Below are positions 1-21,126 of a DNA stretch of 64,000 nucleotides, piece after piece. Every line of letters starts with the position of its first letter. Positions within the stretch are counted from its first letter, which is position 1. The notes beneath the pieces are model-generated. The model had not been told where the DNA came from. It ran no database searches and worked only from the letters and a program-made list of their open reading frames with translations. Both the position numbers and the translations under genes were made by a program. The stretch covers positions 4,396 through 68,395 of the forward strand of contig OY970378.1 in assembly GCA_963718875.1 (NCBI GenBank), written 5' to 3'. Source of the DNA: Candidatus Parcubacteria bacterium. GTDB taxonomy: Bacteria > Patescibacteriota > Saccharimonadia > UBA4664 > JBIOIQ01.

Positions 1-3000
1 GTGCGATTACTGTGGACATTAAAAGTTGGGCACTGGGTGTACGGCCATAAACCCTGTAGGAAATGGCCCCGGTAACGGCTGTCCAGCTTAGGTCGACTGA
101 ACCAGCACCTCCCCCGCCAGCAATAGAACAGCTGGCTTCGGCACCGGCCGTGGTTGTGCCTACGCCGTCGGAGGCGCCAATTTTATAGGCGTAGGTGCCA
201 TCGGCTAGGTTACCACCGCTGGTATTACATATTAGGGTTGGGGCAGCTGGCGCACCAGTTTCAATGGCGGCGGCATTGCCGGCTCCCAGAGTTAAGGCTT
301 GCTGAGGGCTGGATGTGCCAATGCCGATACGCCCGTTAAGAGTATCTGCTACGAATAAGCTGCTCGTACCGGTGGCATTTTGGATTTCGAAGGCGTTAGT
401 AGAGTTAACAGAGTTTTGGAATGATACCGGGGAGTTAATAACCCCGTTAAGTGAAATCGTACCAGGACCGTATGGCCTCACTCCGGCACCGGCGTCTATC
501 TGAACCCCATCGAGATAGATTGTCCTGGCAGCGGCTGTCGTCTGGCGGAAGTACAGGTATGGCGTACCAGAAGTAGCTGTCGTTGACATGGTACAGGCAT
601 AACGGGTCCATCCTGTCGTGGGAACAGTTGGCATTGGTTGGACACAATCAACCTCGGTAGCTCCGTCAGCGGCATAACCGAAAACGTAGTTTACTGCGCC
701 GGACTGATTTTTTAAAAAGGCGCTGAATGTGTATGTACCAGGAGTTAGGGTTATGTTTTGTTTTACCCCTTGACTATTGACAGCTGTAGTGGTCAACTGC
801 AAAGCCGCGTTACCGATGTATTGTTGGGTTGTGACGCGAGCAACCGTTGTTTCGGTGCCAATTTTTTTAAGCCAAGCGGACATATCGGTACCTTCAAAGC
901 TGGGGTTTGTTATCGTGTTGGTGTCGGTGGTATCAATGTTGATAGATTGAGCACCAATAGAGTTTGCTACCTGAAAAGCAGTAGTTGAGTTAGTAAACGT
1001 TTGCAGATTGAGCCCGGCATTATTTAGCACCGTAGCTGTAGCTCCGGCTTGTAATGTAATCGTGGTACCAGAGTGGGAGTTAGCAGCCGCGCCACCGGTA
1101 CCACCTATTTTAATGGTATTGGCAGAGTTGTTTGGAGTAGCAATGTTGACAGCATTCGTCCCCGTAGAAGTACCGACATTTGCGGTTTGTGCCGCTGTGC
1201 CTGTGCCAAGGTTAATTGTTGTTGCATTGGTACCAACCGTAACAGTACCAGAACCAACGGTGTCGAGGGTGAGAGTACCGGTACCAGATGTTTGGACCGT
1301 CAAATTCTGGTTGGTACCGCCCACTTGCCAAATGGAGGTAGCATTAGCAGTTATAGCAAGACCTGTGGCAGCGGGAGCAGCTAAGGTTGGTGTGACAAAC
1401 GACGTATCGGCAGTGCCGGTACCGGAGATATGGAAGTTACTTGATGCTTGCAAGCCACTTTGGTTAAAGATGTAGTTGGTGGAGCCAGCTGGGAGATCGG
1501 CGGCCAGAATGGCGCTGGAGACAAAGTTAGTGCCATTGCCGCGGAGGTAGTTGCCTGAGGCGGCAGCACCAGCAATCTGGTAGCCGGTTGAAACGTTGAG
1601 GACACCAGCAGCGGTTAGCGACGCTGACTGCGTGAAGGCCTGGTTATCGGCGGTAGCAGTAGGGGCATTTCCAAACAGGAAGCCACCTGCTAGGTTGCTT
1701 TTTAGGATAGAGCCGGCAATGCCACGAGTAAGGTATGTGTTGATGTTAGTACCCGCTTCGGCATTAAAGGCCAGGAATGGCGCACCGTCGTTAGATTGGG
1801 CTCCAATCGTGCTTCTGTATCCCGCCGTATTAGTGTGACCGAATTCTATGCTGTTGCCATTGGAGATGGCAGCTATGAGAGCGTTGGACACCGGAGTGGT
1901 GGCGCCAACTCTAACGTTACCGTTCCCGAGAACGGTTAAACGCTCGCCACCGGTTAAGGTGTAGGTTAGAGGGCTGGCGGTTGTTGAAAAAGCAACGGTG
2001 ACAGTTAGACTAGTGTTGCTGGGGATTGTAGCGATGGTGCGAACAGTTTCGCCTTGAACCGTAATAGTATCCCCGACTTTAAATGTGTTTAAAAACTCCG
2101 TATTTGTGCCGGTAAGGGTAATTGTAGCGTTTGTAGCAACCGTTCCCGGGCCGGCAGTGGGAGTTGCGACCTGAAAAATACCATTTGGGGTAGTTGTACC
2201 AATGCCAACGTTACCGCTATCGTGAGCAGTCAAAACCAAGTTGCCAGCAGCGCTAGTATAGAGTTGGCTTGCCTGATACTGGTCGGTCATATTGGTGGCG
2301 TTAAAGTTGTTGCCAACAAACAGCGGACCGTGGTTAATGCGCTTTAAGGTAATGTGGTCCATTTGGGTAGTGGCGCCAGTGGCGCCGTAGTTGATTAACC
2401 CCAGCACCCGAACGTACCTAGTATTTACTGGGAAGTTACCGGCTACGGTGCCTTCACCTGTGGTGGTAGCGCTAAGTTTGTGCCAGTTACCGTCGGCTGG
2501 TAAAACGTAACCCGAAGCAGCAAAGTAACAGTACGTTCCGCAGGGAGCCGTTGTAATGGCAGTCTTAGCAGCATTGTAAGCAATGTAGCCGAAGTACATT
2601 ACCCCTGGTGTACCGCCAGCAACTGTCTTTTTAAAGTACCCTTCAAGCTGCAGCACGTCTCTAGTAGGATCGACCGGGATGTAGTCATTACTGAGGACTG
2701 TCGCACTTTGCGTAGTTATTTCGGCCGCTTGGTCGCCAGAATAGCCTCCTGTGACGGAGGAGTTAATACCGCTCCACCCGTATGTCCCCTGCTCAAAGTC
2801 ACCATTTACCAGCAAATTGTTGGTAGCGGCATCGGCCAACAGGTAGCCGTTTTGGCTAGCTAAACCACCTGCCAATGAGAAGTTTTGACCAGTGGCTACA
2901 ACCGTGTCTTGGTTGAGGTTAATGACGCTGGCGTTGGTGGTGCCGATGTTGAGGGCAACGTTTGAGGCCGTATCGAGCAGCGGAGCTTGCAAAGCGGTGC

Positions 3001-6000
3001 TGGCGGTGTAGGTTGTACCGCCTGTCAGGGTGCCGCTAGTGGTTATGCCGGTGCTGGAAACACCAAAGTAGGTTGATCCTCCACCATTACTTTGGACCTC
3101 AAGTAGCCTTGCTCCAATTGGACTGGCGTTGTCCTGGACGGTAAGGGCACCGCGGGTTGCATCAACCACTATCTCGACAGCTGTGGGGGAGTTAGTATAG
3201 CCGGCTTGGAGGGTCGAGCCAGAACCGGTACCGGCACAGCTGCTCCAAATTGGGGCGGCGGAGTTTTGCCCAATCAAACATTGGCCGGTTGTACCTTGAG
3301 CCGTGACACCAAGCCCGCTGGTGGCGTTTCCATAAATGACGCCGTATTGAGTAAACGTGGTCTGGCCTGTGCCTCCATACCCAACGGCAATTGTGTTGCC
3401 GTTGTAGGTGACGTTTTGCAGCAAACCGGCGTTGGTAAGACGGGTGGTGCCTGCTGTGTTGATGTTGCCTGCTTGAACATTAAGGTTTCCAGTATTAACC
3501 ACTGTGCCATTAGTAGTGGAAACCGCCAAAAGATCGGTGCCGTTGTTTTGGACGGCAAACTTACTGGTAGAACCAGTGGCGATATTGACGGTAAAGTTGG
3601 AATCGGTGGTTTCATTGGTGAGAGTAACTGCTAAGTCACGGCCGGCAGTGTAGCCAGCGCTTGAGAGTGTATTGCCATTATCGTAGGCGGCCTGAAGCGT
3701 TGATCCGGATCCTGCACCGGAACAAGAGCCCCAAACTGGATTGCCGGCAGTTGATACCAGACATAGTCCGGCACTACCGGCCGCGGCCGTCATGCCTACT
3801 GCCGAGGTACCATTACCATACAAAATCCCATTTGCCGTAAGAGTAGCACGCCCGGTCCCACCTTGAGCCACATTAACGGCCGTAAAGCCGGTAGTAAGGG
3901 AGCCAGAGCTAAGCGCGCCCACTTGAGCAATGTTGGAGTAACTGACCCCCGTAGAAAAGCCGGCATTTTGGATTGTGCCGCTGCCGTTAATAATGGGCGT
4001 GGCGCCGGCCACCAAAATGGAGTTGTAGCCGGTTCCAACCGTTAAAGCGTTAAAGACGTTATTGGTGACGGTAGTGACGTTGGGTAGGTTTAAAGCATTG
4101 AGTATATTGGCGTTGGTGTTGGCGTTGGCTCCGCCCACAGGAGTAACAGACAGGCCATTGACGGTAGTAACCGTGGCGCTGGCATTGGTGTTGGTGACTG
4201 CTATATTGGCAGAGCTTGAGTTATTGGCTCCGGATGCCGAAACCGAAAAGTAGGTGTTCGTACCGGCGTTATTTTGGACTTCTAGCAAGGGGCTTGAGGT
4301 AATGGGAGTGCCATTGTCGCGAATTGTTAATGCTTTGTTGGTGTTGTCTAAGACAATCTCATTAACACCAGAGTTGGTGTAGGCACTTTGCAGCGTGTTT
4401 CCCGAACCGCTGCCGGAGCAAGCCTGCCAAGTTGGGGCAGCTGAGTTATTGCCCATAAGACATTGGCCAGTATTACCCACAGCGCTGACTTGCAAGGTGC
4501 TGGAGCCATTGCCCAGGAGTACCCCATACTGAGTAAACGTAGCGGCGCCAGTACCACCGTTTGTAACTCCAAGGGTTCCAGTAACAGCGGCTGATTGGGA
4601 GATATCAATAGACCCAAAAGCCGGTGCTCCCCCGACGCTGGGAACACGAAAGACCTGGTTGGCCGTACCGGCAGCTGTTACATTAAGCGCCGAGGCGTTA
4701 TTACCCAACAGTACTCCATTGAGTGTAAAGGTAGCCGCGCCCGTGCCTCCCCTAGCTACCCCCAAGGTACCAGCGGTAAGAATATTGGTATTGGCAGTGA
4801 CTGAGTTGGTGTTGTCGAGCGAAACGTTTTGCAGAATCCCAGTACTGCCAAGACGAATAGTGCCTCCGGTGAGAAGATTTCCATTAAGATTTAGCTCGGG
4901 TAGCGTCATCTCTTTGGTTACGTATATATCATCCCATTTATGAACTACGCCAGTGGTGCCTGAGCCTGTACGTAAGAAGATACGTAGAAAGGCGGCATCT
5001 GCTGGTGCGGTGGCGTTACCAGAAATTCTGGTCCATGTATCGGCGGTGGTTGAGCCAAACCCGGGATAGGTATTTGGGGTAATGGCTGAATCGGTACCAT
5101 TTTTTTGTTTCCAGTTGAACCTTAGTCCCCCTTGACCTGCTGAGGTGATAGATTTTATCCAGGCTTCGCCATACCATATTTCCCCGCCTTGGGTTGGAAT
5201 ATCAATTGAATGTTCGTAGTAAAAGTTGCCGGCAGTTGAAGTAGAGGTAACGGCGAAGTTACCGGTTCGGGTATCTGTAGACTCAAGTGCATAAGAGGCA
5301 CTATTTACCCATCCTTCGTCCTCGTTTCCAGTTTCAAAGCCTGGGTTATCGATGTAGTTATCGTAAGTTCCAACCCCTGTATTCATTATCTGAACTTGGC
5401 CACCTTGTAAGGTAATACCGGCTGACCCAGCGTCAATATTAACGGCCGTCGCCCCGGTAGTATTGCCTAACGTAATTGTTTTGGCGTTAGCACTCGTGCC
5501 AATATTGAGAGCGCCGACGGTGCCGGAGTCGACTGTCAATATTGTGCCAGCTCCGGAAGCGAGCGTTACGGCCCCGGTGCCTGTGATATTGGTACCAACT
5601 CCGGTAATACTCCCGGCGTTAGTAATACCGGTGGAGTTAACGTCGATTCCACCAGCCGATACGGTGAGGCCACCAGTATTAACTACCGTTCCGCCAGCCG
5701 TTGTAACCCGCAAAAGATCGGTGCCATTGTTTTGGACGGCAAATTTGCCGGTAGAGCTAGTGGCAATATTTACTAAAAAGTTAGAGTCAGTAGCGGTATT
5801 AACCAATGTAATGCTAACGTCCTTAGCATCGGTAGTCGCAATAGTATTGCCGTTATCGTAAGCTGCTTGCAAAGTTGAGCCAGATCCAACTCCAGAGCAG
5901 GTTTGAAATGTCGGAGCAAAGCCGACCCCATTTGAGACTAAACATTGGCCGTCTGTTCCGACAGTCGTTGTTGCAAGGGTTGTAGAGTTACTAGCATAAG

Positions 6001-7441
6001 CCACCCCATTGACGGCAAAGCCACTCCCAAGAGTAAGAGTGCCAGAGTTGTCGGGCAGGGTCATGATTCTGGTTCCACTAGTGGAGGCCCCTGTAAAGCG
6101 GAAGTTGTTAGTGCCGGGGGTCCCGGACGTACCGGAAATAAACAGCTCGCCAAATGGTAAAGTAGCCGAACCTATATTAACGGCGCCGGCCGTGCCCGGT
6201 AATAGCGAGGTATTAATAGCTACGCTAGCTAGGTTAGAAAGGGCGGTGTTGGCTCCCCCGCCGCCGGCCCCAGCACAAGAGCCAAAAGCCAGGGTCCCGG
6301 CGTTGTCGGTGGTGGTAACACATTGACCCGTGCTACCTACTGCAGTAGGTAGCGTTAGGTTAAAAGTACTGGCGGTGGCACCGCTTTGGAGCGTAACCGT
6401 GTTGGAGTTGGCGCCGTTAAAAAACCTGACGGAACCGAGTCTTCCAGCGCTGGAAGCACCGAGGGTTAAGGAGGCAGAGGTAGGAATGGTAACACCGATG
6501 GCGCCGTGACCAATGTTGATGGCGGACGCATTGGTGGTACCAATGTTTATTACACCGGTGGTTCCAGTAGCAGTACCGGAGTCGACCGTAATATTGCCAG
6601 AATTTGAAGTTGTGCCACTAGCATTGCCGCTTTGTAGCGTCAGGACGTTGGAATGGGTGCTGGCGGCGTTGGTAGGAGCGGTTTGCAAAACGCCATTGAT
6701 AGAGATATTTCCAGTGCTGCCGTCAACGTTTAAAGCCGTAATGGTGCCACCGGCGTTTTGGATCCTAAAAGCGGTAGCGCTAGAGTTTTGGAATAGATTG
6801 GTACCACTAAAGGTTTGGTTGGCGGCTAGTTGGCCAAACTGGCTAGCGGTAAGCCCGCCGAGCTGACCCGCGTTTTGGGCATACGGGGAGGCTGTAAAGC
6901 GGATCATGGGTAGCATTTCCCCGTCCGGCGAACAGTTGGCAAACACGTTGGTGGCGCCACAATTGGTGGTGTTGCCCAAGTTGATCGATAGCCAAATGGT
7001 GTCGTTATTCCAAATATTGGTTGGTAGCGGGTTGCCGCCTTGGGCACCAAGGTTTACTTGAAAAATACCGCTACTTACGGAAATGGAGGTGGAGTTGTTG
7101 ACCAAGTGATCTTCGGTAAAAACTAAAGTTCCACCGGGGTTGCCAGCACTGGTTCCGGCTCCATCGGTGTAGAGCTTAAACTGAACATTATAGTTGCCGT
7201 CGGTAATATTGGTGCCATTAACATTGACTAGCTTGCCCTGAAAGTTAACTTGGGAATTAATGCCGACCGCAGCATTGGCTTGCGGCAAACTCCAAGACAC
7301 AAGAAACAAGTTACAAACAATAGCCAATATCCAAGCACCAAGTGCCCAATGTTTGTGAGTTGTGTGTTGTGTGTTGTGTGTTGTGTGGCGATTGTGTCTT
7401 GCTGGTTTCTTACCAAAAAACTTAGTTTTTCGAGTACGCAA
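1..7441 (-). CDS. giant repetitive secreted surface protein (N-terminal >2480 aa; C-terminus lies beyond window start). Thr/Gly/Asn/Ser/Ala-rich with internal ~180-aa repeat modules containing paired Cys
   Basis: Minus-strand frame (codon low coordinate = 2 mod 3) stays open from a TTG at 7441 (or GTG 7498) to position 1. Hand translation at 7100-7440 and 2940-3000 gives plausible protein. N-terminus reads KKPARHNRHTTHNTQHTTHKHWALGAWILAIVCNLFLVSWSLPQANA|AV, a signal peptide with AXA site. Plus-strand ORFs in this span are V/P/A-rich antisense artefacts. Internal nucleotide repeats, e.g. 3531-3590 vs 5711-5770. Confidence 0.6.
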   Translation of the reverse strand, partial: MRTRKTKFFGKKPARHNRHTTHNTQHTTHKHWALGAWILAIVCNLFLVSWSLPQANAAVGINSQVNFQGKLVNVNGTNITDGNYNVQFKLYTDGAGTSAGNPGGTLVFTEDHLVNNSTSISVSSGIFQVNLGAQGGNPLPTNIWNNDTIWLSINLGNTTNCGATNVFANCSPDGEMLPMIRFTASPYAQNAGQLGGLTASQFGQLAANQTFSGTNLFQNSSATAFRIQNAGGTITALNVDGSTGNISINGVLQTAPTNAASTHSNVLTLQSGNASGTTSNSGNITVDSGTATGTTGVINIGTTNASAINIGHGAIGVTIPTSASLTLGASSAGRLGSVRFFNGANSNTVTLQSGATASTFNLTLPTAVGSTGQCVTTTDNAGTLAFGSCAGAGGGGANTALSNLASVAINTSLLPGTAGAVNIGSATLPFGELFISGTSGTPGTNNFRFTGASTSGTRIMTLPDNSGTLTLGSGFAVNGVAYASNSTTLATTTVGTDGQCLVSNGVGFAPTFQTCSGVGSGSTLQAAYDNGNTIATTDAKDVSITLVNTATDSNFLVNIATSSTGKFAVQNNGTDLLRVTTAGGTVVNTGGLTVSAGGIDVNSTGITNAGSITGVGTNITGTGAVTLASGAGTILTVDSGTVGALNIGTSANAKTITLGNTTGATAVNIDAGSAGITLQGGQVQIMNTGVGTYDNYIDNPGFETGNEDEGWVNSASYALESTDTRTGNFAVTSTSTAGNFYYEHSIDIPTQGGEIWYGEAWIKSITSAGQGGLRFNWKQKNGTDSAITPNTYPGFGSTTADTWTRISGNATAPADAAFLRIFLRTGSGTTGVVHKWDDIYVTKEMTLPELNLNGNLLTGGTIRLGSTGILQNVSLDNTNSVTANTNILTAGTLGVARGGTGAATFTLNGVLLGNNASALNVTAAGTANQVFRVPSVGGAPAFGSIDISQSAAVTGTLGVTNGGTGAATFTQYGVLLGNGSSTLQVSAVGNTGQCLMGNNSAAPTWQACSGSGSGNTLQSAYTNSGVNEIVLDNTNKALTIRDNGTPITSSPLLEVQNNAGTNTYFSVSASGANNSSSANIAVTNTNASATVTTVNGLSVTPVGGANANTNANILNALNLPNVTTVTNNVFNALTVGTGYNSILVAGATPIINGSGTIQNAGFSTGVSYSNIAQVGALSSGSLTTGFTAVNVAQGGTGRATLTANGILYGNGTSAVGMTAAAGSAGLCLVSTAGNPVWGSCSGAGSGSTLQAAYDNGNTLSSAGYTAGRDLAVTLTNETTDSNFTVNIATGSTSKFAVQNNGTDLLAVSTTNGTVVNTGNLNVQAGNINTAGTTRLTNAGLLQNVTYNGNTIAVGYGGTGQTTFTQYGVIYGNATSGLGVTAQGTTGQCLIGQNSAAPIWSSCAGTGSGSTLQAGYTNSPTAVEIVVDATRGALTVQDNASPIGARLLEVQSNGGGSTYFGVSSTGITTSGTLTGGTTYTASTALQAPLLDTASNVALNIGTTNASVINLNQDTVVATGQNFSLAGGLASQNGYLLADAATNNLLVNGDFEQGTYGWSGINSSVTGGYSGDQAAEITTQSATVLSNDYIPVDPTRDVLQLEGYFKKTVAGGTPGVMYFGYIAYNAAKTAITTAPCGTYCYFAASGYVLPADGNWHKLSATTTGEGTVAGNFPVNTRYVRVLGLINYGATGATTQMDHITLKRINHGPLFVGNNFNATNMTDQYQASQLYTSAAGNLVLTAHDSGNVGIGTTTPNGIFQVATPTAGPGTVATNATITLTGTNTEFLNTFKVGDTITVQGETVRTIATIPSNTSLTVTVAFSTTASPLTYTLTGGERLTVLGNGNVRVGATTPVSNALIAAISNGNSIEFGHTNTAGYRSTIGAQSNDGAPFLAFNAEAGTNINTYLTRGIAGSILKSNLAGGFLFGNAPTATADNQAFTQSASLTAAGVLNVSTGYQIAGAAASGNYLRGNGTNFVSSAILAADLPAGSTNYIFNQSGLQASSNFHISGTGTADTSFVTPTLAAPAATGLAITANATSIWQVGGTNQNLTVQTSGTGTLTLDTVGSGTVTVGTNATTINLGTGTAAQTANVGTSTGTNAVNIATPNNSANTIKIGGTGGAAANSHSGTTITLQAGATATVLNNAGLNLQTFTNSTTAFQVANSIGAQSINIDTTDTNTITNPSFEGTDMSAWLKKIGTETTVARVTTQQYIGNAALQLTTTAVNSQGVKQNITLTPGTYTFSAFLKNQSGAVNYVFGYAADGATEVDCVQPMPTVPTTGWTRYACTMSTTATSGTPYLYFRQTTAAARTIYLDGVQIDAGAGVRPYGPGTISLNGVINSPVSFQNSVNSTNAFEIQNATGTSSLFVADTLNGRIGIGTSSPQQALTLGAGNAAAIETGAPAAPTLICNTSGGNLADGTYAYKIGASDGVGTTTAGAEASCSIAGGGGAGSVDLSWTAVTGAISYRVYGRTPSAQLLMSTVIA
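7355..7385. repeat. heptanucleotide repeat (CACACAA)x3 plus one imperfect unit on the coding strand, inside the 5' end (n-region of the signal peptide) of the giant gene
   Basis: Plus strand reads gtgtgttgtgtgttgtgtgttgtgtgg. Encodes HNTQHTTHNTQ-like residues. Confidence 0.8.
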
Positions 7442-7605
7442 AAGCAGTGTGGCTTGTATTTGAAGCGATAGAGGTACGAGTAAAAATACCCATATCACGC
7501 TCTGTAACTTCACTCTCACAAGCACCACACGTTACAGGTGTGATTATATCAAAATGGTTATGCTAATGCAAGTCCTCTGAGTACAATCGGTAAATTGAAA
7601 AGCGA

Positions 7606-7634
7606 TTGACATAGTCACCTTGACGTGCTATGGT
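7606..7634 (+). promoter_or_regulatory. sigma70-like promoter candidate (TTGACA-17 bp-TATGGT)
   Basis: ttgaca at 7606-7611, 17-bp spacer, tatggt at 7629-7634. No annotated downstream plus-strand gene except a 48-codon ORF. Confidence 0.3.
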
Positions 7635-7720
7635 ATATAGGTTTTTGGGCTGATTATTCGACAATTTTTCTTGTAGCTTGATGCGCCAGCACGGCGCATC
7701 CCGATCGAAGGGATTACAGT

Positions 7721-7867
7721 ATGTTCGCCCCAATCTTTCTCATCTTTCTTCTGACAGGCTGCGTGTTATGTATAGTGGCCATGGCCCGAAAGAATCACCG
7801 CCCCGACCCTATCCAGCCTCTCGCTCTGAGCGGTCAAGTCCTAGTAAACGAGTATTGCCCTGATTAG
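7721..7867 (+). CDS. small hydrophobic peptide (48 aa) with lipobox-like LTGC; alternatively an untranslated small RNA
   Basis: ATG 7721 preceded by aaggga 8 nt upstream. Translation MFAPIFLIFLLTGCVLCIVAMARKNHRPDPIQPLALSGQVLVNEYCPD. Lies between promoter 7606 and terminator 7908. Confidence 0.25.
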   Translation: MFAPIFLIFLLTGCVLCIVAMARKNHRPDPIQPLALSGQVLVNEYCPD

Positions 7868-7907
7868 AGCCTTGCCCACACGAAGAACAGCGGATCCACT
7901 CAACTCG

Positions 7908-7944
7908 GCCCCGAGGCTACCAAGCATCGGGGCTGCATTTTTAT
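7908..7944 (+). terminator. rho-independent terminator (GC hairpin gccccga...tcggggc followed by tgcatttttattt)
   Basis: Inverted repeat 7908-7933 followed by a T-tract. An A-tract upstream means it may also serve the convergent minus gene ending at 7945. Confidence 0.5.
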
Positions 7945-8889
7945 TTAATCGCTCTTTTGATGCTTTTGCCTTAATTGTCTTTTGTAAATAAATACCCCCA
8001 AAGATGTAACAACAGTAAGACCTAATATAATCGCAGCAAGTAAAATAAGGGCTCCTCTTGGAATGTAGTAGAGGCTTGTCTTATAGGTAGTAAAGTTATC
8101 TCGGCCATCATAACGATACTGAACGACTAGCTGGTATTTACCAGGAGCGGATATGCGCCGAGTCGTCATTAGGGGAACAGTAAAACGGCGAAAAGAATCT
8201 GGCAGAATCCGCGATGACTCCTCATTAATGGCGGCCCGAGCCACCTCGCGACCACGCGGATCAAGTAAACGAATAACTCCTCGAGGAACGACATCTATAT
8301 TGCCCTTATTATGAAACCGCGCTTTCAAAGACAACGTTTGCCACCAGTCGGTGGCGGGCTGAACGCTATCTAGCTTGAGGTCATATTTTTCGCCGCCGAT
8401 TTTATTTACAAACAGCAAGGTGGAGAGCACGGATTGGACAATTACCTTGTCTTTGGAGGCAGCTGCTGTAGGCTGTTCCCCTAGCAAGATGGCACCGTAA
8501 TGTCCTCCGGGAGTCAAAGACGGCTGATTATTAATGCTAGCCCGCATGGTTTTAACTTCGCCGGGTCGTAAAGTCACAGTACTATCACTTAGCGTGAGCC
8601 AATTTACTAACCCATGGGGGCGAATTTGACCAGGTGTGCTAGCCAAGAAAGCTACCCCTCCTGATTCGTCTAGACTACCGAAGTCGCTGGTAGATAAAGT
8701 AAAAGTTTTAGTTTGCGACGGGTCATTGTTGGTTACAGAATAGCTAAAATCGGCTGTCTGCTGGTCTTTGGTTATGGTTATGTTTTGAAATGGAGGTGAA
8801 ATTGTCACTCCCTCGGCGGCAAAAGCATTGTTTTTAACTACGCAAAGTGCAATGACAACAGTGAAGGCTACAAACAACCATCGTCGCAT
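7945..8889 (-). CDS. cell-surface protein with signal peptide, beta-rich ectodomain, C-terminal TM helix + basic tail (DUF916/DUF3324-like; diverged paralog of the next two genes)
   Basis: ORF 7945..8949; likely start MRRWLFVAFTVVIALCVV at 8889. C-terminus ...LILLAAIILGLTVVTSLGVFIYKRQLRQKHQKSD. Confidence 0.45.
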   Translation of the reverse strand: MRRWLFVAFTVVIALCVVKNNAFAAEGVTISPPFQNITITKDQQTADFSYSVTNNDPSQTKTFTLSTSDFGSLDESGGVAFLASTPGQIRPHGLVNWLTLSDSTVTLRPGEVKTMRASINNQPSLTPGGHYGAILLGEQPTAAASKDKVIVQSVLSTLLFVNKIGGEKYDLKLDSVQPATDWWQTLSLKARFHNKGNIDVVPRGVIRLLDPRGREVARAAINEESSRILPDSFRRFTVPLMTTRRISAPGKYQLVVQYRYDGRDNFTTYKTSLYYIPRGALILLAAIILGLTVVTSLGVFIYKRQLRQKHQKSD

Positions 8890-8890
8890 T

Positions 8891-9916
8891 TTATCGCCTC
8901 CGGGGTAACAACTTACGGATAATTTTTTTAACAGTCGACTGCAACCCAATGATCATAAAAATACTTACGAATACAAGAACTCCAATCACCCGCCACGGCA
9001 CCACCCAAAAGCTAACGCTGCCGGTAAGAGGGATGTCTCTGGTGCCGTCATTGTAGGCCATGGTAAAGCTGGCGGTGTACTTACCAAAACGGAGCTTGGG
9101 AACTTGGGTAAAGTCCCACTTAAGGGTCATTTCCGGTTGGTTGTTTTTAATGATGGGTTTACCATCTTGGAGCTTAGGGACATAGACAGGAAAGCCATCT
9201 TTCCAGGCGGCAGTGTAAATACGGTTGGAGTTGGGCAGGATATTGCCCCCCGAATCATTAACGTCAATGGTGGAAACAGGTTTCTTGCCTTTGGTAATGA
9301 AAATGTTACCTTTGGGAACTACGTGAATATTACCAGCATTACGGAGCTTAATGTTAAAAGTAGCCGGTAGGAACTCGTAGAACTTGTGGTCGGCAGTAAA
9401 GCTGACAGGGGTAAGTTGGCGCTTAGTGTTAGGAGAGTTAACTGCTAGCAACACTAGGGTGGCACTGGAACCGGCCACTACAGCTTCGGCGCCGGTAGGC
9501 TTAATGTCTTCCGCTCGGGAAAAAGTAGCAGCCAGGTAGTAGCCAAAGGCAGCTGTTTTAGGAATAGCGATGGTCATCTTGATGGTTTTCCACTCTCCTG
9601 GTGGAGCGTCAAACACGCTGGGGCTAAATTTAACCCAGTCAAAATAGCTGTCCGCAGCCTGGCGGTCACTTAAAACTGGTGAGCCGTCCTCACCCTGGGC
9701 GCCAAACTTAATTAAGCCAACTTTTAGACGTTCGGGAGCAGTGCCATTGTTTTTAACCCGCAAGTCGGCAGTGACAGTAGTGCCAGGATTGGCGGTTAGG
9801 TTAATGGGGAGAGGTGAAGTAGCGATGGAGAGTGGTTGTCCGGCGGCGGTGAGCGGGAGAGGGATAAAAAGGAGGGACAGGGCAATTAAAAAAAGCGAGT
9901 GTGCCAGCTTCGTCAT
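8891..9916 (-). CDS. cell-surface protein (DUF916/DUF3324-like), copy 2 of tandem duplicate
   Basis: Likely start ATG 9916 (MTKLAHSLFLIALSLLFIPLPLTAAGQ), overlapping the upstream stop in ATGA. ~330 aa identical to the 9913..10971 product except signal peptide and C-terminal anchor. C-terminal TM + KKIIRKLLPRRR. Confidence 0.5.
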   Translation of the reverse strand: MTKLAHSLFLIALSLLFIPLPLTAAGQPLSIATSPLPINLTANPGTTVTADLRVKNNGTAPERLKVGLIKFGAQGEDGSPVLSDRQAADSYFDWVKFSPSVFDAPPGEWKTIKMTIAIPKTAAFGYYLAATFSRAEDIKPTGAEAVVAGSSATLVLLAVNSPNTKRQLTPVSFTADHKFYEFLPATFNIKLRNAGNIHVVPKGNIFITKGKKPVSTIDVNDSGGNILPNSNRIYTAAWKDGFPVYVPKLQDGKPIIKNNQPEMTLKWDFTQVPKLRFGKYTASFTMAYNDGTRDIPLTGSVSFWVVPWRVIGVLVFVSIFMIIGLQSTVKKIIRKLLPRRR

Positions 9917-10917
9917 CGCTGTCTCTTTGCGGCCCGTTTCATGCGTCGTTTCATCAGCCAATAAACCAGGATAGCTGGCACAACCGGAACGGCTATACCG
10001 AAGAGAATCACCCGCCACGGCACTACCCAAAAGCTAACGCTGCCGGTAAGAGGGATGTCTCTGGTGCCGTCATTGTAGGCCATGGTAAAGCTGGCGGTGT
10101 ACTTACCAAAACGGAGCTTGGGAACTTGGGTAAAGTCCCACTTAAGGGTCATTTCCGGTTGGTTGTTTTTAATGATGGGTTTACCATCTTGGAGCTTAGG
10201 GACATAGACAGGAAAGCCATCTTTCCAGGCGGCAGTGTAAATACGGTTGGAGTTGGGCAGGATATTGCCCCCCGAATCATTAACGTCAATGGTGGAAACA
10301 GGTTTCTTGCCTTTGGTAATGAAAATGTTACCTTTGGGAACTACGTGAATATTACCAGCATTACGGAGCTTAATGTTAAAAGTAGCCGGTAGGAACTCGT
10401 AGAACTTGTGGTCGGCAGTAAAGCTGACAGGGGTAAGTTGGCGCTTAGTGTTAGGAGAGTTAACTGCTAGCAACACTAGGGTGGCACTGGAACCGGCCAC
10501 TACAGCTTCGGCGCCGGTAGGCTTAATGTCTTCCGCTCGGGAAAAAGTAGCAGCCAGGTAGTAGCCAAAGGCAGCTGTTTTAGGAATAGCGATGGTCATC
10601 TTGATGGTTTTCCACTCTCCTGGTGGAGCGTCAAACACGCTGGGGCTAAATTTAACCCAGTCAAAATAGCTGTCCGCAGCCTGGCGGTCACTTAAAACTG
10701 GTGAGCCGTCCTCACCCTGGGCGCCAAACTTAATTAAGCCAACTTTTAGACGTTCGGGAGCAGTGCCATTGTTTTTAACCCGCAAGTCGGCAGTGACAGT
10801 AGTGCCAGGATTGGCGGTTAGGTTAATGGGGAGAGGTGAAGTAGCGATGGAGAGTGGTTGTCCGGCGGCGGTGAGCGGGAGAGGGATAAAAAGGAGGGAC
10901 AGGAATATGGCTAAACT
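8988..10917. repeat. tandem direct duplication, two ~1020-bp units (~910 bp >99% identical) spanning the two DUF916-like genes
   Basis: 8991-9897 matches 10011-10917 with a single mismatch noted at the 5' edge. Identical antisense ORFs appear twice in the ORF track. Confidence 0.9.
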
Positions 10918-10971
10918 AAAACGGGTAAAATTAAAAGCACTCCACTTCATGTTGTAAGTATACCCTAGCAT
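9913..10971 (-). CDS. cell-surface protein (DUF916/DUF3324-like), copy 1 of tandem duplicate
   Basis: Signal peptide MKWSAFNFTRFSLAIFLSLLFIPLPLTAAGQ (start 10971 or 10950). C-terminal TM + KRRMKRAAKRQR. Confidence 0.5.
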   Translation of the reverse strand: MLGYTYNMKWSAFNFTRFSLAIFLSLLFIPLPLTAAGQPLSIATSPLPINLTANPGTTVTADLRVKNNGTAPERLKVGLIKFGAQGEDGSPVLSDRQAADSYFDWVKFSPSVFDAPPGEWKTIKMTIAIPKTAAFGYYLAATFSRAEDIKPTGAEAVVAGSSATLVLLAVNSPNTKRQLTPVSFTADHKFYEFLPATFNIKLRNAGNIHVVPKGNIFITKGKKPVSTIDVNDSGGNILPNSNRIYTAAWKDGFPVYVPKLQDGKPIIKNNQPEMTLKWDFTQVPKLRFGKYTASFTMAYNDGTRDIPLTGSVSFWVVPWRVILFGIAVPVVPAILVYWLMKRRMKRAAKRQR

Positions 10972-10991
10972 AAGAGTGTTAGGAACAGGGT

Positions 10992-12209
10992 TTAGAATCT
11001 ACCGGCGGCAACAATTGTTAGAGTGTCGGCGTAGTCGGTGGCGGCAGGAGTAACGCCGGAAACAGTGGCACGCTCAACGAAGTTAATGACGTCACCAGCT
11101 GAAGTTCCGGTTGAGGAGGCGAATGGGGAATAAAAGCTGGGGTTAATGGGGCCCATTTTACAGGTACCGTTACCGGAGCAGGTGGCAAATCCACCCGTAG
11201 AGTCGTAGGCGGCATTGGCACTGGGGGTTCCAGCTTGGCCACCACCACCGGCGGTAACAGAGGTAACAGCAAAACCGTAGTCTTCAGCACCGGCCGTATT
11301 AGTGTGAGCAGCAGTACCAATTGAGTTAGTGGTGTTGTTAGATATTTTGTAGTTAGCAGCAGTTGGTGACATGAGGGCTCCATGTAAGTTGCCCGAGGAA
11401 GTATCGGAAACGGTTTTGGCGTTTGCACTTAAATCTTTAACATACGCTACCCAACCGCCGTTGGCATTGGTGGTGACGGAAATGTTTAAGGCCGCCGTTG
11501 AGACTGTGCTAGAGGGGTCTAGGTTGGTACTAAATGCTTGTGAATTACCACTTAGAGTAAAGATGAAAGTTGGCGGAACAGTGGCTGTAACATTAACTTG
11601 ATCGGCGGTGATGCTTGAACCAATGATGGAAACAGCATATGCGCTGGTGGCGGCGTCGGCAGTACCTGGGTAAGCGCCTGTACGAGTTGTAACTGTGCCA
11701 GCCAAGTTATTGCCCGAAGTAGCAGGAGTCCTAAGCGCGGTAGTGGAGTTGGTCCAGTTAAAGCAGTAAACGGCCGCCGAAGCAAGGTTGCCACTAACAA
11801 AATCGACGGTTTGAGCAGCAGGTGCGTTGGTAGGCTGAGCGATGCCGGTCCATGCTACCGACCCCGCAGGCCACGATGTGTTAGTTGTACTATTAACAGC
11901 CCAATCTGCTTGGGTGGCGCTAAGAACAAATCCAGTAGGGAATACTACTCGAGCGGTAGTTTCGGTGCCAGCCACATTGGCGGCAGACATGTTGGCGCAA
12001 ACCGTACCCGAAGCAAAGACGCTACCGCCGTTGGAGGCAGCAACGCGATCAAGTCGTACTGTGATTTCGTTAAACTCAGGTGCCGCCATAGCCGTACCCG
12101 TCATAAACGGAACAAAAGCTTGGAATAGTAAAGCAACGATACTTGCAATACGCAGGCGTTGAAGGAAGTTTCTATTTAGAAACTGGTTTCTCATCAATTT
12201 ATAACCCAC
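10992..12209 (-). CDS. secreted protein, paralog A (pilin/fibre-subunit-like; ends ...ATDYADTLTIVAAGRF)
   Basis: Signal peptide (RLRIASIVALLFQAFVPFMTGTAMAAPE). 3' half nucleotide-identical to the paralog at 12343..13527. Confidence 0.55.
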   Translation of the reverse strand: MGYKLMRNQFLNRNFLQRLRIASIVALLFQAFVPFMTGTAMAAPEFNEITVRLDRVAASNGGSVFASGTVCANMSAANVAGTETTARVVFPTGFVLSATQADWAVNSTTNTSWPAGSVAWTGIAQPTNAPAAQTVDFVSGNLASAAVYCFNWTNSTTALRTPATSGNNLAGTVTTRTGAYPGTADAATSAYAVSIIGSSITADQVNVTATVPPTFIFTLSGNSQAFSTNLDPSSTVSTAALNISVTTNANGGWVAYVKDLSANAKTVSDTSSGNLHGALMSPTAANYKISNNTTNSIGTAAHTNTAGAEDYGFAVTSVTAGGGGQAGTPSANAAYDSTGGFATCSGNGTCKMGPINPSFYSPFASSTGTSAGDVINFVERATVSGVTPAATDYADTLTIVAAGRF

Positions 12210-12288
12210 TTGCTAAAACTCTAATGCTTAAATCATAATCATGAATTTACTCATTGTCAACCTCTCTTCAGATACCTGCGTTCCATAA

Positions 12289-12320
12289 CAAAAAGACCCT
12301 CGTATGAAGGTCTTTTTGTT
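12289..12320. terminator. bidirectional rho-independent terminator (aaaaagacc-loop-ggtctttttgtt)
   Basis: Perfect hairpin flanked by an A-tract and a T-tract, immediately downstream of the minus gene ending at 12343. Confidence 0.55.
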
Positions 12321-12342
12321 ATAACTAAAGTAAAAGTATCTT

Positions 12343-13527
12343 TTAGAACCTGCCAGCGGCAACAATAGTTAGAGTGTCGGCGTAGTCGGTGGCGGCAGGA
12401 GTAATACCAGCAATGTTGGCACGCTCTACAAAGCTAATGACGTCACCAGCTGAAGTTCCGGTTGAGGAGGCAAATGGGGAATAAAAGCTGGGGTTAATGG
12501 GGCCCATTTTACAGGTACCGTTACCGGAGCAGGTGGCAAATCCACCCGTAGAGTCGTAGGCGGCATTGGCACTGGGGGTTCCAGCTTGGCCACCACCACC
12601 GGCGGTAACAGAGGTAACAGCAAAACCGTAGTCTTCAGCACCGGCCGTATTAGTGTGAGCAGCAGTACCAATTGAGTTAGTGGTGTTGTTAGATATTTTG
12701 TAGTTAGCAGCAGTTGGTGACATGAGGGCTCCATGTAAGTTGCCCGAGGAAGTATCGGAAACGGTTTTGGCATTGGCACTTAAATCCTTGACGTAAGCCA
12801 CCCAACCAGCCGAGGCGTTGGTGGTGACAGAAATGTTTAAGGCCGCCGTTGAGACAGTGGTAGCAGGATCTAGGTTGGTACTAAATGGTTGGGAGTTACC
12901 ACTTAGAGTAAAGATGAAGGTTGGCGGAACAGTGGCTGTAACATTAACTTGATCGCCTGTTCCACCGGAGCCTATTACAGAAGTGGCGTAGTTACTAGAG
13001 GCGGCGTCGGCAGTACCTGGGTAAGCGCCTGTACGGGTTGTAACTGAGCCGGTCAGGTTGTTCCCCGCACTGGCTGGCGTACTAAGGGCTGTGGTTGTGT
13101 TGGTCCAGTTAAAACAATAAATATTTGCCGAGGCAAGGTCACCGCTTACAAAGTCGACGGTTTGACCGGTGGGCGCATTAGTAGGTAGAGAGATGCCGGT
13201 CCATGATACTGCCCCCACAGGCCACGAGGTGTTAGATGTACTGTTAACCGTCCAGTTAGCAGGTGTAGTGCTGACAGTAAAGCCCGTAGGAAACACTACC
13301 CTGACGGTGGTTTCGGTGCCAGCTACATTGCCCGCGGTTGCGTTGACGCAAACGGTTCCGGAAGTAAAGACCGTACCCGCGGAAAGACGATCAAAACGAA
13401 CTAAAGCATAAGTGTACGGAGCGGCGGCGGCAGTGCCTACCATAAATGGAACAAAAGCTTGGAATAGTAAAGCTACGATGCTGGCTATTCGAAAGCGCTG
13501 AAATATTTTATGATTGTGTATTTTCAT
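12343..13527 (-). CDS. secreted protein, paralog B (same family; identical C-terminal ~150 aa ending TLTIVAAGRF)
   Basis: Signal peptide MKIHNHKIFQRFRIASIVALLFQAFVPFMVGTAAAAPY. N-terminal half diverged from paralog A, C-terminal half identical. Confidence 0.55.
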   Translation of the reverse strand: MKIHNHKIFQRFRIASIVALLFQAFVPFMVGTAAAAPYTYALVRFDRLSAGTVFTSGTVCVNATAGNVAGTETTVRVVFPTGFTVSTTPANWTVNSTSNTSWPVGAVSWTGISLPTNAPTGQTVDFVSGDLASANIYCFNWTNTTTALSTPASAGNNLTGSVTTRTGAYPGTADAASSNYATSVIGSGGTGDQVNVTATVPPTFIFTLSGNSQPFSTNLDPATTVSTAALNISVTTNASAGWVAYVKDLSANAKTVSDTSSGNLHGALMSPTAANYKISNNTTNSIGTAAHTNTAGAEDYGFAVTSVTAGGGGQAGTPSANAAYDSTGGFATCSGNGTCKMGPINPSFYSPFASSTGTSAGDVISFVERANIAGITPAATDYADTLTIVAAGRF

Positions 13528-13622
13528 GGCTGTTGTTGAGTTTCCCCTTTTTTTATTTTTGTTTTTTTATATGAATACATTAAGAGTTTGGATCAAAGTT
13601 CTTATGCTGTCAAGCTTTTTTT

Positions 13623-13754
13623 CTGACCCACGTGCACTTTGCGAATTTTGATGTCATGTTGAGCTTGTCGAAACATCTATCCAGATAGATCTCTTCCGTC
13701 GACTGACGGATCGAGATGACAATAGGAAGAGAACTAAAAGTGCACGTGGGTCAG
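13623..13754. repeat. MITE-like element: 18-bp perfect terminal inverted repeats (ctgacccacgtgcacttt / aaagtgcacgtgggtcag) enclosing a palindromic core shared with 25913-26000
   Basis: Inverted-repeat arms at 13623-13640 and 13737-13754. Internal atgtcatgttgagc...gtcgaaacatctatccagatagatctc...cgagatgacaat. Confidence 0.6.
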
Positions 13755-13774
13755 CTTTTTTTGGCCTTTATTGG

Positions 13775-14809
13775 CTAAAACGATCCCGAGGCGACTAGTG
13801 TTAGAGTATCTGTGTAGTCGCTGGCTGACGGGGTTGTGGCGCTAGCTTTAGCCTTAATGACAATCTGAGCCGAACCGCCCGTTATTGGGGCAGTGCTATT
13901 AAAAATAGTTTGAAAAGCTAACGCCAGCCCTCCAACGTTATTTGTGGAGCCATTAAATGGGCTTGCTACCGTAAATGGACCTCCGCTTGATTGAGTAGCA
14001 CTAGCTCCTTGTGCCCCATAGCCCGATGAGGCTGCACTAAGATCGGCGGTCGAAGAAACAATTAGTGGCCCAACCACATTACTTTTAAGCCCGGCATTTT
14101 TTGAGGCCACATAAACATTTCCCCCGGATTCGGCATTGGTATCAAGTGTGATACTGCCGTTGGGGGTAGCGGTAATAACGCTCCCGGCCGAAAGCGTACC
14201 TAGGTCTACCGTGCTGGGAGAGACAGAAAAAGATAATTGAGCAGTGGACGTTGATGCAGCCGCAGTAGGCCCGTAAGCTGACTCTGTAAATCTACCCTGA
14301 ATTGCCCTGGCTTTAACGGTGTAAGTAGTGTTGGGAGTTAAGCCTATTACCGTTGTTCCCGAGCCGCTACCCCATGACGAGTAGGTTCGGTAGTCTGTTG
14401 GGTAAACCAAGGTCGTGCCAACCGTATTGTCGCTTTTTACGTAATTAATGTTACTAGCAAATGCGTCGGTGCTAATCGCTACTGCGTACAATGCATCCGT
14501 AGGATTGCCTTGGGTACCAATAGTAATAAGTAGCTTATTATAGAAATTATTAACATTGGTAATGGTAATAGTGGGAACGTTGGAGTTTTGAGCATTATTA
14601 TTTCCGGATTGAACCGCCTTTGCAGTACCCGTAGACTGAGCGGTACTTTGTTCTCCGGCTGTGCCATTTACTCTATAAGTAGTCGAAGCCGAACTAGCTG
14701 TACCGCCAGTCCCTATGCTGTAATTATGCAGCTGATAGGTTGTGCTTGACGGCAATGCGGCTAACAGCATAACTGTACCGCCTAAAAAAGTACTAAACCA
14801 TCCACTCAT
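13775..14809 (-). CDS. secreted protein, paralog C (ends ...SDYTDTLTLVASGSF; same C-terminal strand motif)
   Basis: Signal peptide MSGWFSTFLGGTVMLLAALPSSTTYQ; Ser/Thr/Gly-rich; C-terminal motif shared with paralogs A and B. Confidence 0.5.
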   Translation of the reverse strand: MSGWFSTFLGGTVMLLAALPSSTTYQLHNYSIGTGGTASSASTTYRVNGTAGEQSTAQSTGTAKAVQSGNNNAQNSNVPTITITNVNNFYNKLLITIGTQGNPTDALYAVAISTDAFASNINYVKSDNTVGTTLVYPTDYRTYSSWGSGSGTTVIGLTPNTTYTVKARAIQGRFTESAYGPTAAASTSTAQLSFSVSPSTVDLGTLSAGSVITATPNGSITLDTNAESGGNVYVASKNAGLKSNVVGPLIVSSTADLSAASSGYGAQGASATQSSGGPFTVASPFNGSTNNVGGLALAFQTIFNSTAPITGGSAQIVIKAKASATTPSASDYTDTLTLVASGSF

Positions 14810-15108
14810 ACCCTTATCATAAGATAAGCATAGGCGTTTTACAACGGGACTAGGGTTGGTTCATTACGCTTAAAGCGGAAAGCATACTTTTATGCAGTGT
14901 AAATGGACTTTCAATAACTCCGGGTGGCTTTTCTTTAGCATGGAACTCTAGCAATATCTTGGTAAGAAGCGTCCTCAGAAGCCAATCCCCGATACGGATC
15001 ACAAACCGGTCCAGACAGCTTCAATCATTTTCGGCCAGGTTAATTTTAGTTTTAAAGAACCCGACTTAAAGACCAGGTGAAGGCGTATCATTTTTGAGGT
15101 TTTTAGGA

Positions 15109-15132
15109 AGTTATATAACGTGTTATATAACT
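15109..15132. promoter_or_regulatory. operator-like perfect inverted repeat agttatataac-gt-gttatataact (11-bp arms)
   Basis: Seen directly. Lies in the 870-bp AT-rich non-coding region upstream of the minus gene 13775..14809. Confidence 0.3.
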
Positions 15133-15680
15133 ATTTGTCTTTTTAAAAAATGCAATAGCCCAGGTTGAGCATCTGGCTGAAAATGTGAGGCATAATAGGC
15201 AGGTTGTATGGTTAAATTAACCATACAAATTTCAAAATTATATAATTCGTCAAACACCCTAAAAAGACATAAGTACTTCCTGCCCGAAAAAGGCATAGGC
15301 ACTCTCTTAAATAAAAAGCTAGGTTAGTGGGCTAGTTATCTCTTCGTTCAAAAACACTAAGGGATTACCACAGACGTCAAGCTGCTAAAAGACTTTTGAC
15401 TTCTGCTAGCGGGAGATAGGAGAGGCTGCACAAAGACATTTAAATGGTCTTATCTTAAATGTGTGCTACTTGCCCAGCATCTACCTGTCGGTAGACGCTG
15501 GGCTCAACAAATATGTAAGATGCCGCGTGTCCGAACCGAAAAAACGCAACTTAGCATTATGACAGCCCTGTCCGCTAAAAGTTTCAAAACTTTACTTAAA
15601 CAGCTCTGGTCATCTAGAGGCTAACTGGTTTGTCCTAGTTAGATTGTAGCTTGTTCCGTTTTAGCGTAATGAACCTGAGG

Positions 15681-16277: not shown

Positions 16278-16283
16278 GCTACT

Positions 16284-17252: not shown

Positions 17253-17257
17253 CAAGG

Positions 17258-18683: not shown

Positions 18684-21122
<2,439 letters not shown>

Positions 21123-21126
<4 letters not shown>

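Follow-up and report, generated by a model that had tools for sequence, protein, structure and literature searches.

A probable Pam-type donor-strand pilus locus in a Saccharimonadia genome of the candidate phyla radiation

Described systems closest to the locus

Bacteria of the candidate phyla radiation (CPR), or Patescibacteria, are obligate episymbionts whose attachment organelles are poorly known. We analyzed a stretch of 64,000 nucleotides (the window) from a Candidatus Parcubacteria bacterium placed in the Saccharimonadia (GCA_963718875.1, contig OY970378.1), and consider it likely that a minus-strand locus at approximately positions 1-17255 encodes a Pam-type, that is CPR-type, pilus: a Sec-exported filament built by donor-strand exchange with neither an usher nor a sortase.

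The pam operon was defined in Candidatus Mycosynbacter amalyticus, the thin filaments of which were solved by cryo-electron microscopy (cryo-EM; Troman et al., bioRxiv 2026, doi 10.64898/2026.03.03.709456). Here, PamT is the tip subunit, PamC and PamD are FimC/PapD-like chaperones with a transmembrane helix at the C-terminus, and PamR is an anchor resembling RbmA, with an additional N-terminal strand, tandem immunoglobulin (Ig)/fibronectin type III domains and a transmembrane helix. In PamA (QHN43273.1; 55.3 kDa) and PamB (QHN43269.1; 38.7 kDa), for which the structures are 25PZ/25QA, the linker and the binding site of the C-terminal domain are the most conserved parts. These operons are restricted to the CPR, and the ATP synthase operon lies beside them together with a gene for a giant ‘tail fibre-like’ protein; neither WxL nor DUF916 is mentioned in the preprint (Troman et al., 2026). 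The second system that invites comparison is the csc/WxL cluster, in which the WxLIP protein is predicted to insert a strand into the WxL protein, thereby completing the fold of its partner (PMC10599100).

The locus in the window (Table 1) codes for three secreted paralogs (S1, S2 and S3), three membrane-anchored proteins (A1, A2 and A3), a giant protein (G) and two further proteins, x and R. It matches every architectural feature of the Pam systems that could be checked. Like the Pam pilins, the pilin candidates have a signal peptide, after which a conserved linker joins an N-terminal beta-sandwich to a C-terminal Ig-like domain, with conservation peaking in the linker and the C-terminal domain, and the chaperone-like proteins have a predicted PapD/FimC-like fold followed by a C-terminal transmembrane helix. 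R is a candidate counterpart of PamR, as judged from its sequence and the published description, and shows an N-terminal strand motif, weak Ig-like Pfam matches and a C-terminal transmembrane helix. The context is also comparable, with a PamT-related gene placed before the pilins, adjacent ATP synthase genes, a giant fiber-like protein and labeled homologs from the CPR. Conversely, the gene order differs from that of M. amalyticus, no pilin of about 55 kDa akin to PamA is present, the PamT-related protein exceeds the 241 positions of the PamT model, and there are three chaperone-like genes, two of them near-identical. We also considered whether the window might hold the M. amalyticus operon itself; this was rejected on account of differing pilin masses, a different order of the genes and the lack of a full PamT match.

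With the csc/WxL clusters (PMC10599100; PDB 9i25, 9i1y) the locus shares several secreted partners, a large surface protein and an anchored protein of about 340 amino acids (aa) in which a pair of Ig-like domains precedes a C-terminal transmembrane helix. Unlike in those clusters, the partners show no WxL domains or motifs and consist of two domains with a donor-like linker, there is no LPXTG-bearing CscD-like protein, and the host belongs to the CPR rather than to the Firmicutes. The locus likewise differs from chaperone-usher pili, be they of the Pap/Fim, archaic Csu or alternate CFA/I kind: it comes with no usher or outer membrane, its chaperone-like proteins are membrane-anchored, its subunits are two-domain proteins and its probable donor lies inside the subunit, as the linker between the domains, and not in an extension of the N-terminus. 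TasA-like (TLP) fibers and archaeal bundling pili have no dedicated PapD-like chaperones and a different subunit architecture, and no sequence similarity to them was found.

Components of the locus and their conservation

The minus strand at positions 1-14809 holds seven consecutive open reading frames (ORFs), all for exported proteins, the signal peptide of S3 being weak, with no basic n-region and no hydropathy peak. The giant, anchored and secreted types that an original prediction from the letters of this DNA had listed are thus all present. Two co-conserved genes on the same strand, those for x and R, extend the unit beyond 14809 to 17255, so that the order reads R-x-T-P-P-B-B-a-G (R, x, S3, S2, S1, A3, A2, A1 and the giant), where T stands for the S3 type, P for S1/S2, B for A2/A3, a for A1 and G for the giant. 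To place this order in context, a pilin profile was run against the GTDB species representatives, yielding 251 relatives, and 79 of their loci were examined, with gene families assigned by local phmmer over all ORFs; all 79 are from metagenome-assembled genomes (MAGs), mostly labeled CPR, and many of the contigs are truncated. M. amalyticus did not appear among the 80 loci that the scan returned. The T type lies directly upstream of P in 59 of the 79 loci, and in 64 a B-type gene comes after P. The order T-P-(B)-a is kept in 45 and, despite the truncations, the complete order T-P-B*-a-(x)-G in 32, which answers in the positive a proposal of the original prediction that the neighborhood be checked for conservation. 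G is found downstream in 34 loci, R upstream of T/P in 18 and x in 31, x lying before T in loci of the Saccharimonadia type and after the ‘a’ chaperone gene in those of the Moraniibacteriota type. Homologs with taxon labels are all from the CPR, barring MAGs labeled ‘uncultured Bdellovibrionales’, Gammaproteobacteria and Pseudomonadales, which we read as mislabels. A scan for promoters and terminators gave no enrichment over shuffled sequences.

The pilin candidates S1 and S2 are 83% identical. For S2, we recovered 107 word-indexed homologs and, with a profile in an exhaustive search of representatives, 1,767 clusters at 50% identity; those with labels belong to the CPR lineages Saccharimonadia, Moraniibacteriota and Dojkabacteria. 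An AlphaFold2 model of S2 (predicted local distance difference test, pLDDT, 90.8) shows an N-terminal beta-sandwich at approximately residues 41-185, 18 residues (186-203) with no secondary structure, and a C-terminal beta domain (204-394). The seven invariant columns of a 57-sequence alignment (A198, V200, T236, N237, G241, D381 and Y382) all belong to the linker or the C-terminal domain, as do the two most conserved 10-mers, DQVNVTATVP from the linker and the C-terminal TPAATDYADT. The linker, DQ(I/V)xVTATVP, is almost unchanged across these 57 divergent sequences, and the C-terminus, D-Y-x-D-T-x-T-V-x-x-A-G-x-F, is near-invariant in the 107 homologs. Hence, the ending shared by the three secreted paralogs (consensus Y-x-D-T-L-T-x-V-A-x-G-x-F), first singled out in the original prediction, is a genuine family signature and not a chance likeness.

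S3 shares only the C-terminal domain with S1 and S2 (hhalign probability 99.5%, E 2.4e-23). Its middle segment appears FN3-like when judged by eye from the sequence, and it lacks the DQxxVTATVP donor motif, giving no score with a position-specific scoring matrix (PSSM) of the linker. Its N-terminus matches the NCBIfam model NF058579 (CPR_pilus_PamT) with an E-value of 1.6e-7 and 31 bits, where the cutoff is 240, over residues 12-78 only, and the same model matches 18 of the 46 members of the T family (best E 8.5e-9), in all cases far below the cutoff.

All three anchored proteins, A1, A2 and A3, begin with a hydrophobic signal segment and finish with a hydrophobic helix followed by a K/R tail. 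Homology between A1 and A3 extends over the full length (hhalign E 2.4e-43), and A3 has more than 1,126 homologs, among which none of the named ones is from outside the CPR. The AlphaFold2 model of A3 (pLDDT 90.2) consists of a pair of beta-sandwich domains with a helix at the end; a loop of low confidence (146-161) is followed by a strand of alternating hydrophobicity, SATLVLLAV, and then by conserved basic residues (K/R). In the chaperones of chaperone-usher systems such a succession of loop, strand and basic residues forms the subunit-binding F1-G1 region, and we take the loop and SATLVLLAV of A3 to be comparable to that region of PapD. In Foldseek searches of the PDB, the best match of A3 is the WxLIP of Enterococcus faecium in complex with a long WxL protein (9i25_C, E 9.8e-10), with 9i1y also found, followed by RbmA, the PapD-like domains of CEP192 and the chaperones CfaA, CsuC, YadV and CupB2 (TM-score on the target approximately 0.5). 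PF06030 (WxLIP_PGBD, formerly DUF916) is the commonest Pfam match of the A1-type relatives (27 of 45; best E 2.7e-5) and also matches 13 of 54 A3-type relatives, all below the Pfam threshold, and PF11797 (DUF3324) matches one of the 45 A1-type relatives. The original description of the anchored proteins as DUF916-like is thus supported by structure and through these relatives; A1-A3 themselves gave no PF06030 match in the Pfam scan, the seven proteins taken together gave no DUF916, DUF3324, WxL or SCPU match above threshold, and profiles of the B and a families found no WxLIP among PDB sequences.

The fold of A1-A3 is, as predicted with the model of A3, PapD/WxLIP-like, and their function would be that of chaperones. 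This structural link to WxLIP/DUF916, along with the weak sequence evidence, goes beyond what was reported by Troman et al. (2026). It raises the possibility, which we advance tentatively and at somewhat less than even odds, that the anchored chaperones of the Pam type and the WxLIP (DUF916/DUF3324) proteins of Firmicutes are true homologs, belonging to one ancient family of membrane-tethered PapD-like chaperones of bacteria lacking an outer membrane.

Copies of several of these genes resemble each other in a patterned way. A2 and A3 are 100% identical over approximately 850 nucleotides, with differences confined to the signal peptide and the transmembrane anchor, and the DNA of S1 and S2 includes a 100% identical stretch in the C-terminal half, where the C-terminal domain is encoded, as against 55-80% identity in the parts for the N-terminal domain. 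This fits recent duplication or gene conversion, wherein assembly interfaces are kept identical while the exposed parts diverge; the identity of A2 and A3 might also be an assembly artifact.

R gives a weak Pfam match to Glucodextran_B. In about 20 of the 24 scanned proteins of its family the best match to the pilin-linker PSSM lies directly after the signal peptide, as in ADYVVTATVPAPIP and DSYDVSASVP. Across 4,288 unassigned ORFs, the PSSM scored 15 or more in just three, all of them with the match directly after the signal peptide and inside related loci; a fourth, weaker match (10.8) is similarly placed, and two of these four proteins are anchored by a transmembrane segment.

Two sets of observations on relatives of these proteins may be recorded alongside. 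First, unassigned proteins in four of the related loci (L005, 13589-14221; L013, 10093-10710; L051, 4449-5861; L026, 13721-15322) carry TITVTATVP, TIVVTATVP or TIVTTATV directly after the signal peptide, two of them having a transmembrane helix at the C-terminus as well, and may be alternative terminators or adaptors of the filament. Within the window, an orphan paralog of R (38021-38965, minus strand; 314 aa) sits far from the pilus locus among unrelated genes and has a PKD domain match (E 5.5e-6), a transmembrane helix at the C-terminus and a mature N-terminus reading ...SQTISSAIIGPAP. Second, in four long proteins, P0253 (1641 aa), P0255 (1113 aa), P0254 (936 aa) and P0266 (784 aa), the C-terminal stretch of about 330 residues matches the entire pilin profile; these are possibly large adhesins to which a pilin module has been fused so that they can be built into the filament.

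The ORF of the giant protein, taken from TTG 7441, spans 2,480 aa within the window (T 15.7%, G 13.5%, N 9.6%). Its hydrophobic signal segment ends in ...PQANA, ahead of AVGIN, and the mature N-terminus that follows this A, AVGINSQVNFQGK (xGINxQINFQGK...), is conserved in the G proteins of 38 related loci, the lengths of which vary from about 500 to more than 2,400 aa and in which the remainder is hypervariable. For instance, the relatives in L010 (14088-17339), L013 (11656-14511) and L078 (13256-15223) share the mature N-terminus A-T-G-I-N-x-Q-I-N-F-Q-G-K, and many relatives end alike in ...Y-(I/V/L)-E-(T/S)-D-(N/Y/R). The one in L010 matches PHROG 13925, a family of unknown function, with an E-value of 1.5e-22; G of the window matched no Pfam or PHROG family. 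The N-terminal domain has 39 homologs, few of them named, and then as ‘hypothetical protein’ or ‘exported protein of unknown function’; the labeled ones belong to the Saccharimonadia/Saccharibacteria or to an unclassified ‘bacterium’, and most are unlabeled. Repeated cysteine modules in G are indicated by motif counts alone, self-BLAST having returned no matches. Since a conserved N-terminus joined to a hypervariable remainder suits a host-recognition fiber, G is probably such a fiber, and probably also the equivalent of the tail fiber-like protein of the Pam neighborhoods.

Table 1. Coordinates of the components of the locus and of adjoining features in the window
Feature	Position	Strand	Description
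G, secreted Thr/Gly/Asn-rich fiber-like protein, >2,480 aa	1-7441	-	C-terminus beyond left edge of window
A1, a type, putative chaperone, 314 aa	7945-8889	-	Signal peptide, two Ig-like domains, transmembrane helix, K/R tail
A1 transmembrane helix	7984-8052 (residues 280-302)	-	Hydropathy
A2, B type, putative chaperone, 342 aa	8891-9919	-	Core identical to A3; own signal peptide and transmembrane anchor
A2 transmembrane anchor	8942-8989	-	Hydropathy
A3, B type, putative chaperone, 352 aa	9913-10971	-	Domain 1, 42-170; domain 2, 179-316; transmembrane helix, 319-351
S1, P type, major-pilin candidate, 405 aa	10992-12209	-	Signal peptide, N-terminal beta-sandwich, linker, C-terminal Ig-like domain
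S1 C-terminal motif YADTLTIVAAGRF	10995-11033	-	
S1 linker DQVNVTATVP	11574-11603	-	
S2, P type, major-pilin candidate, 394 aa	12343-13527	-	Two beta domains and linker
S2 C-terminal motif YADTLTIVAAGRF	12346-12384	-	Same ending as S1
S2 linker DQVNVTATVP	12925-12954	-	Within unpaired residues 186-203
S3, T type, tip-subunit/adhesin candidate, 344 aa (331 aa in NCBI)	13775-14809	-	C-terminus YTDTLTLVASGSF
S3 PamT-like N-terminal segment	14645-14746	-	Residues 9-42 of 331-aa form
x, 198 aa	15681-16277	-	N-terminal transmembrane segment by hydropathy; no Pfam match
R, PamR-like terminator/anchor candidate, 323 aa	16284-17255	-	Signal peptide, Ig/PKD-like domains, C-terminal transmembrane helix
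R C-terminal transmembrane helix	16347-16409	-	Hydropathy
R linker-like mature N-terminus STISVQAVVPG	17064-17096	-	Directly after signal peptide
Heptanucleotide array AGCTTTG x37.6	17273-17535	.	100% matches; 18 bp upstream of R start codon
F-type ATP synthase beta, gamma and alpha genes	18971-22547	-	Pfam ATP-synt_ab, ATP-synt; adjoins pilus locus

Assembly model and competing readings

We propose that the components would work together as follows. All of them carry signal peptides by which they would be exported, and the membrane-tethered A1-A3 would hold fresh subunits at the outer face of the membrane, completing their C-terminal Ig-like domain. S1 and S2 would form the shaft, with DQVNVTATVP of each incoming subunit displacing the chaperone strand from a groove in the C-terminal domain of the previous one, a groove that would be lined by the conserved TNA..GW and DY.DT.T.V.AG.F-COOH. 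This insertion step is suggested by the conservation of the linker, by its being unpaired in the monomer model and by the cryo-EM structures of the M. amalyticus pilins (Troman et al., 2026). S3 would start the filament at the tip, its extra N-terminal domains being left free for binding, given that it has the acceptor domain with no donor motif and that the T gene comes first. R, as a donor-only protein, would close the filament at its proximal end and fasten it to the membrane, as suggested by the linker-like strand at its mature N-terminus and its C-terminal transmembrane helix. The original prediction had likewise pointed to a strand-exchange fiber, on the strength of the C-terminal strand motif; it was right in kind, but the donor is probably the linker DQVNVTATVP instead, because the C-terminal strand is an integral part of the C-terminal domain in the model. 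By analogy with the subunits of chaperone-usher pili, this strand more likely pairs with the incoming donor.

Several points weigh against this proposal. Strand exchange, the order of the subunits and the function of the chaperones are here inferred; what the analysis shows is the architecture of the domains, a chaperone-like fold by prediction, the pattern of conservation, the recurrence of the strand motif and the synteny. No Pam model was hit when 57 members of the P family and 54 of the B family were scanned with NCBIfam, and searches of PDB sequences with S1, S3 and the P, B and a profiles gave nothing relevant. Among all parts of the locus, just the N-terminal segment of S3 matches a named Pam family by sequence, and that match is partial and far below the threshold. 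Moreover, S1 and S2 have masses of 39.8 and 41.0 kDa as against the 38.7 and 55.3 kDa of PamB and PamA, and the gene order is not that of M. amalyticus. Membership in the Pam kind thus rests on architecture, predicted fold, context and this one weak sequence link, with M. amalyticus being compared by its published description.

Of the other explanations, the one that survives best is a csc/WxL-type complex, in which WxLIP-like anchors would hold the secreted and giant proteins non-covalently at the surface as a non-polymeric adhesin, as proposed for Firmicutes. The original prediction had likened the locus to such clusters, and part of that likeness stands: the best structural match of A3 is a WxLIP in complex with its partner, PF06030 is the leading Pfam family among the A1-type relatives and recurs among those of A3, and the gene ‘grammar’ is the same, in that an anchored protein with two Ig domains is accompanied by two or more secreted partners and by a large protein. 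The predicted insertion of a WxLIP strand into WxL (PMC10599100) would also be in keeping with it. However, no W-x-L motif occurs in S1-S3, Pfam WxL has no match (E<=1) in S1-S3 or 57 P relatives, and neither the domain nor the motif was found when 46 further relatives were included; the WxL domains by which such clusters are defined are thus absent, and we do not take the locus for a csc/WxL cluster. The PF06030 matches all lie below threshold, with none in the proteins of the window, and same-architecture CPR proteins have been seen as filaments by cryo-EM (Troman et al., 2026). A one-to-one holding complex also leaves unexplained why the conserved linker strand, which joins the two domains of the secreted proteins, turns up again at the N-terminus of another, anchored protein. 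We therefore regard a holding complex as unlikely.

Less likely still is that these are co-regulated envelope or S-layer-like proteins that do not exchange strands, and whose conserved termini serve in folding, secretion or attachment to the wall. In favor of this, polymerization rests here on inference, the pilin fold matches generic Ig-like structures such as YcnI and alpha-2-macroglobulin domains, and there are no Pfam assignments. Yet, such a set of proteins would account neither for a transmembrane-anchored PapD/WxLIP-like fold, nor for a linker that is unpaired but the most conserved element and is reused in R, nor for the strict gene order over 79 CPR loci. Finally, a classical pilus pathway, either sortase-dependent as in Gram-positive bacteria or of the chaperone-usher type with an outer-membrane usher, is very improbable: the Ig-like pilin folds do resemble both classes and the chaperone fold the chaperones of the latter, but no window ORF has an LPXTG-like C-terminus (the pilins end in ...AAGRF/ASGSF), the single TLxTC match in the window (54808-55848) is accompanied by no sortase Pfam match, Pfam scans revealed no usher-like family among the locus proteins, and the chaperone-like proteins are anchored by a transmembrane helix rather than soluble. 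On the lack of WxL, LPXTG and sortase, the motif and Pfam scans bear out the original prediction.

Our preference for a Pam-type pilus therefore stands, and the locus, which is genuine and coherent and has wide conservation, is best regarded as an additional member of the Pam-type systems described of late and not as a new system. The suggestion in the original prediction that it might be undescribed is superseded by the Pam filaments solved in the 2026 preprint (Troman et al., 2026) and by the PamT model held in NCBIfam.

Repeat tracts, neighboring genes and implications

Two tandem heptanucleotide tracts lie at, or shortly before, the 5' ends of locus genes. The AGCTTTG array before R can be read as a 113-aa ORF (17258-17599) of KAQSSKL repeats, which is probably not a gene. 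An 11/12 match to a sigma-70-like site (17568-17541, minus strand) lies just upstream of the array; such sites are not enriched over shuffled sequences. We consider the array a candidate slipped-strand phase-variation tract for the R anchor gene. Within the 5' end of the giant ORF, TTGTGTG is repeated five times (7353-7387), between TTG 7441 and the hydrophobic segment of the signal, and the gain or loss of copies would alter the reading frame, thereby possibly switching the giant protein on and off; should the gene in fact start at TTG 7327, this repeat would instead lie upstream of it.

Between R and the ATP synthase genes, a divergent gene (17695-18669, plus strand) encodes a 324-aa protein without a Pfam match, in which an N-terminal transmembrane segment is combined with an ectodomain that is Gly/Ser/Thr-rich and probably beta-rich; it is kept beside R in L003 and L028. 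Elsewhere in the window (59972-61153, plus strand) there is a methyltransferase of the cyclopropane-fatty-acyl/mycolic-acid cyclopropane synthase family (PF02353, E 1.2e-93), in what is apparently a reduced CPR genome.

The Pam pilus is the first filament other than type IV to be solved for the CPR. The present locus shows its building plan to be shared by a compact operon layout that is spread very widely, with a subunit of the tip kind, a shaft pilin or a pair of them, anchored chaperones of two kinds, a hypervariable giant fiber and, optionally, an anchor with the donor strand at its N-terminus. Both the linker DQIxVTATVP and the C-terminus DYxDTxTVxxAGxF-COOH could serve in annotating such loci and in searches for terminators and adaptors. 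Furthermore, the WxLIP/DUF916 link could join two systems that have so far been treated apart. If the anchored chaperones and WxLIP are indeed true homologs, the WxL clusters, which hold their partners at the wall, and the Pam pili, which polymerize them, would be two descendants of a common strand-complementation machinery.

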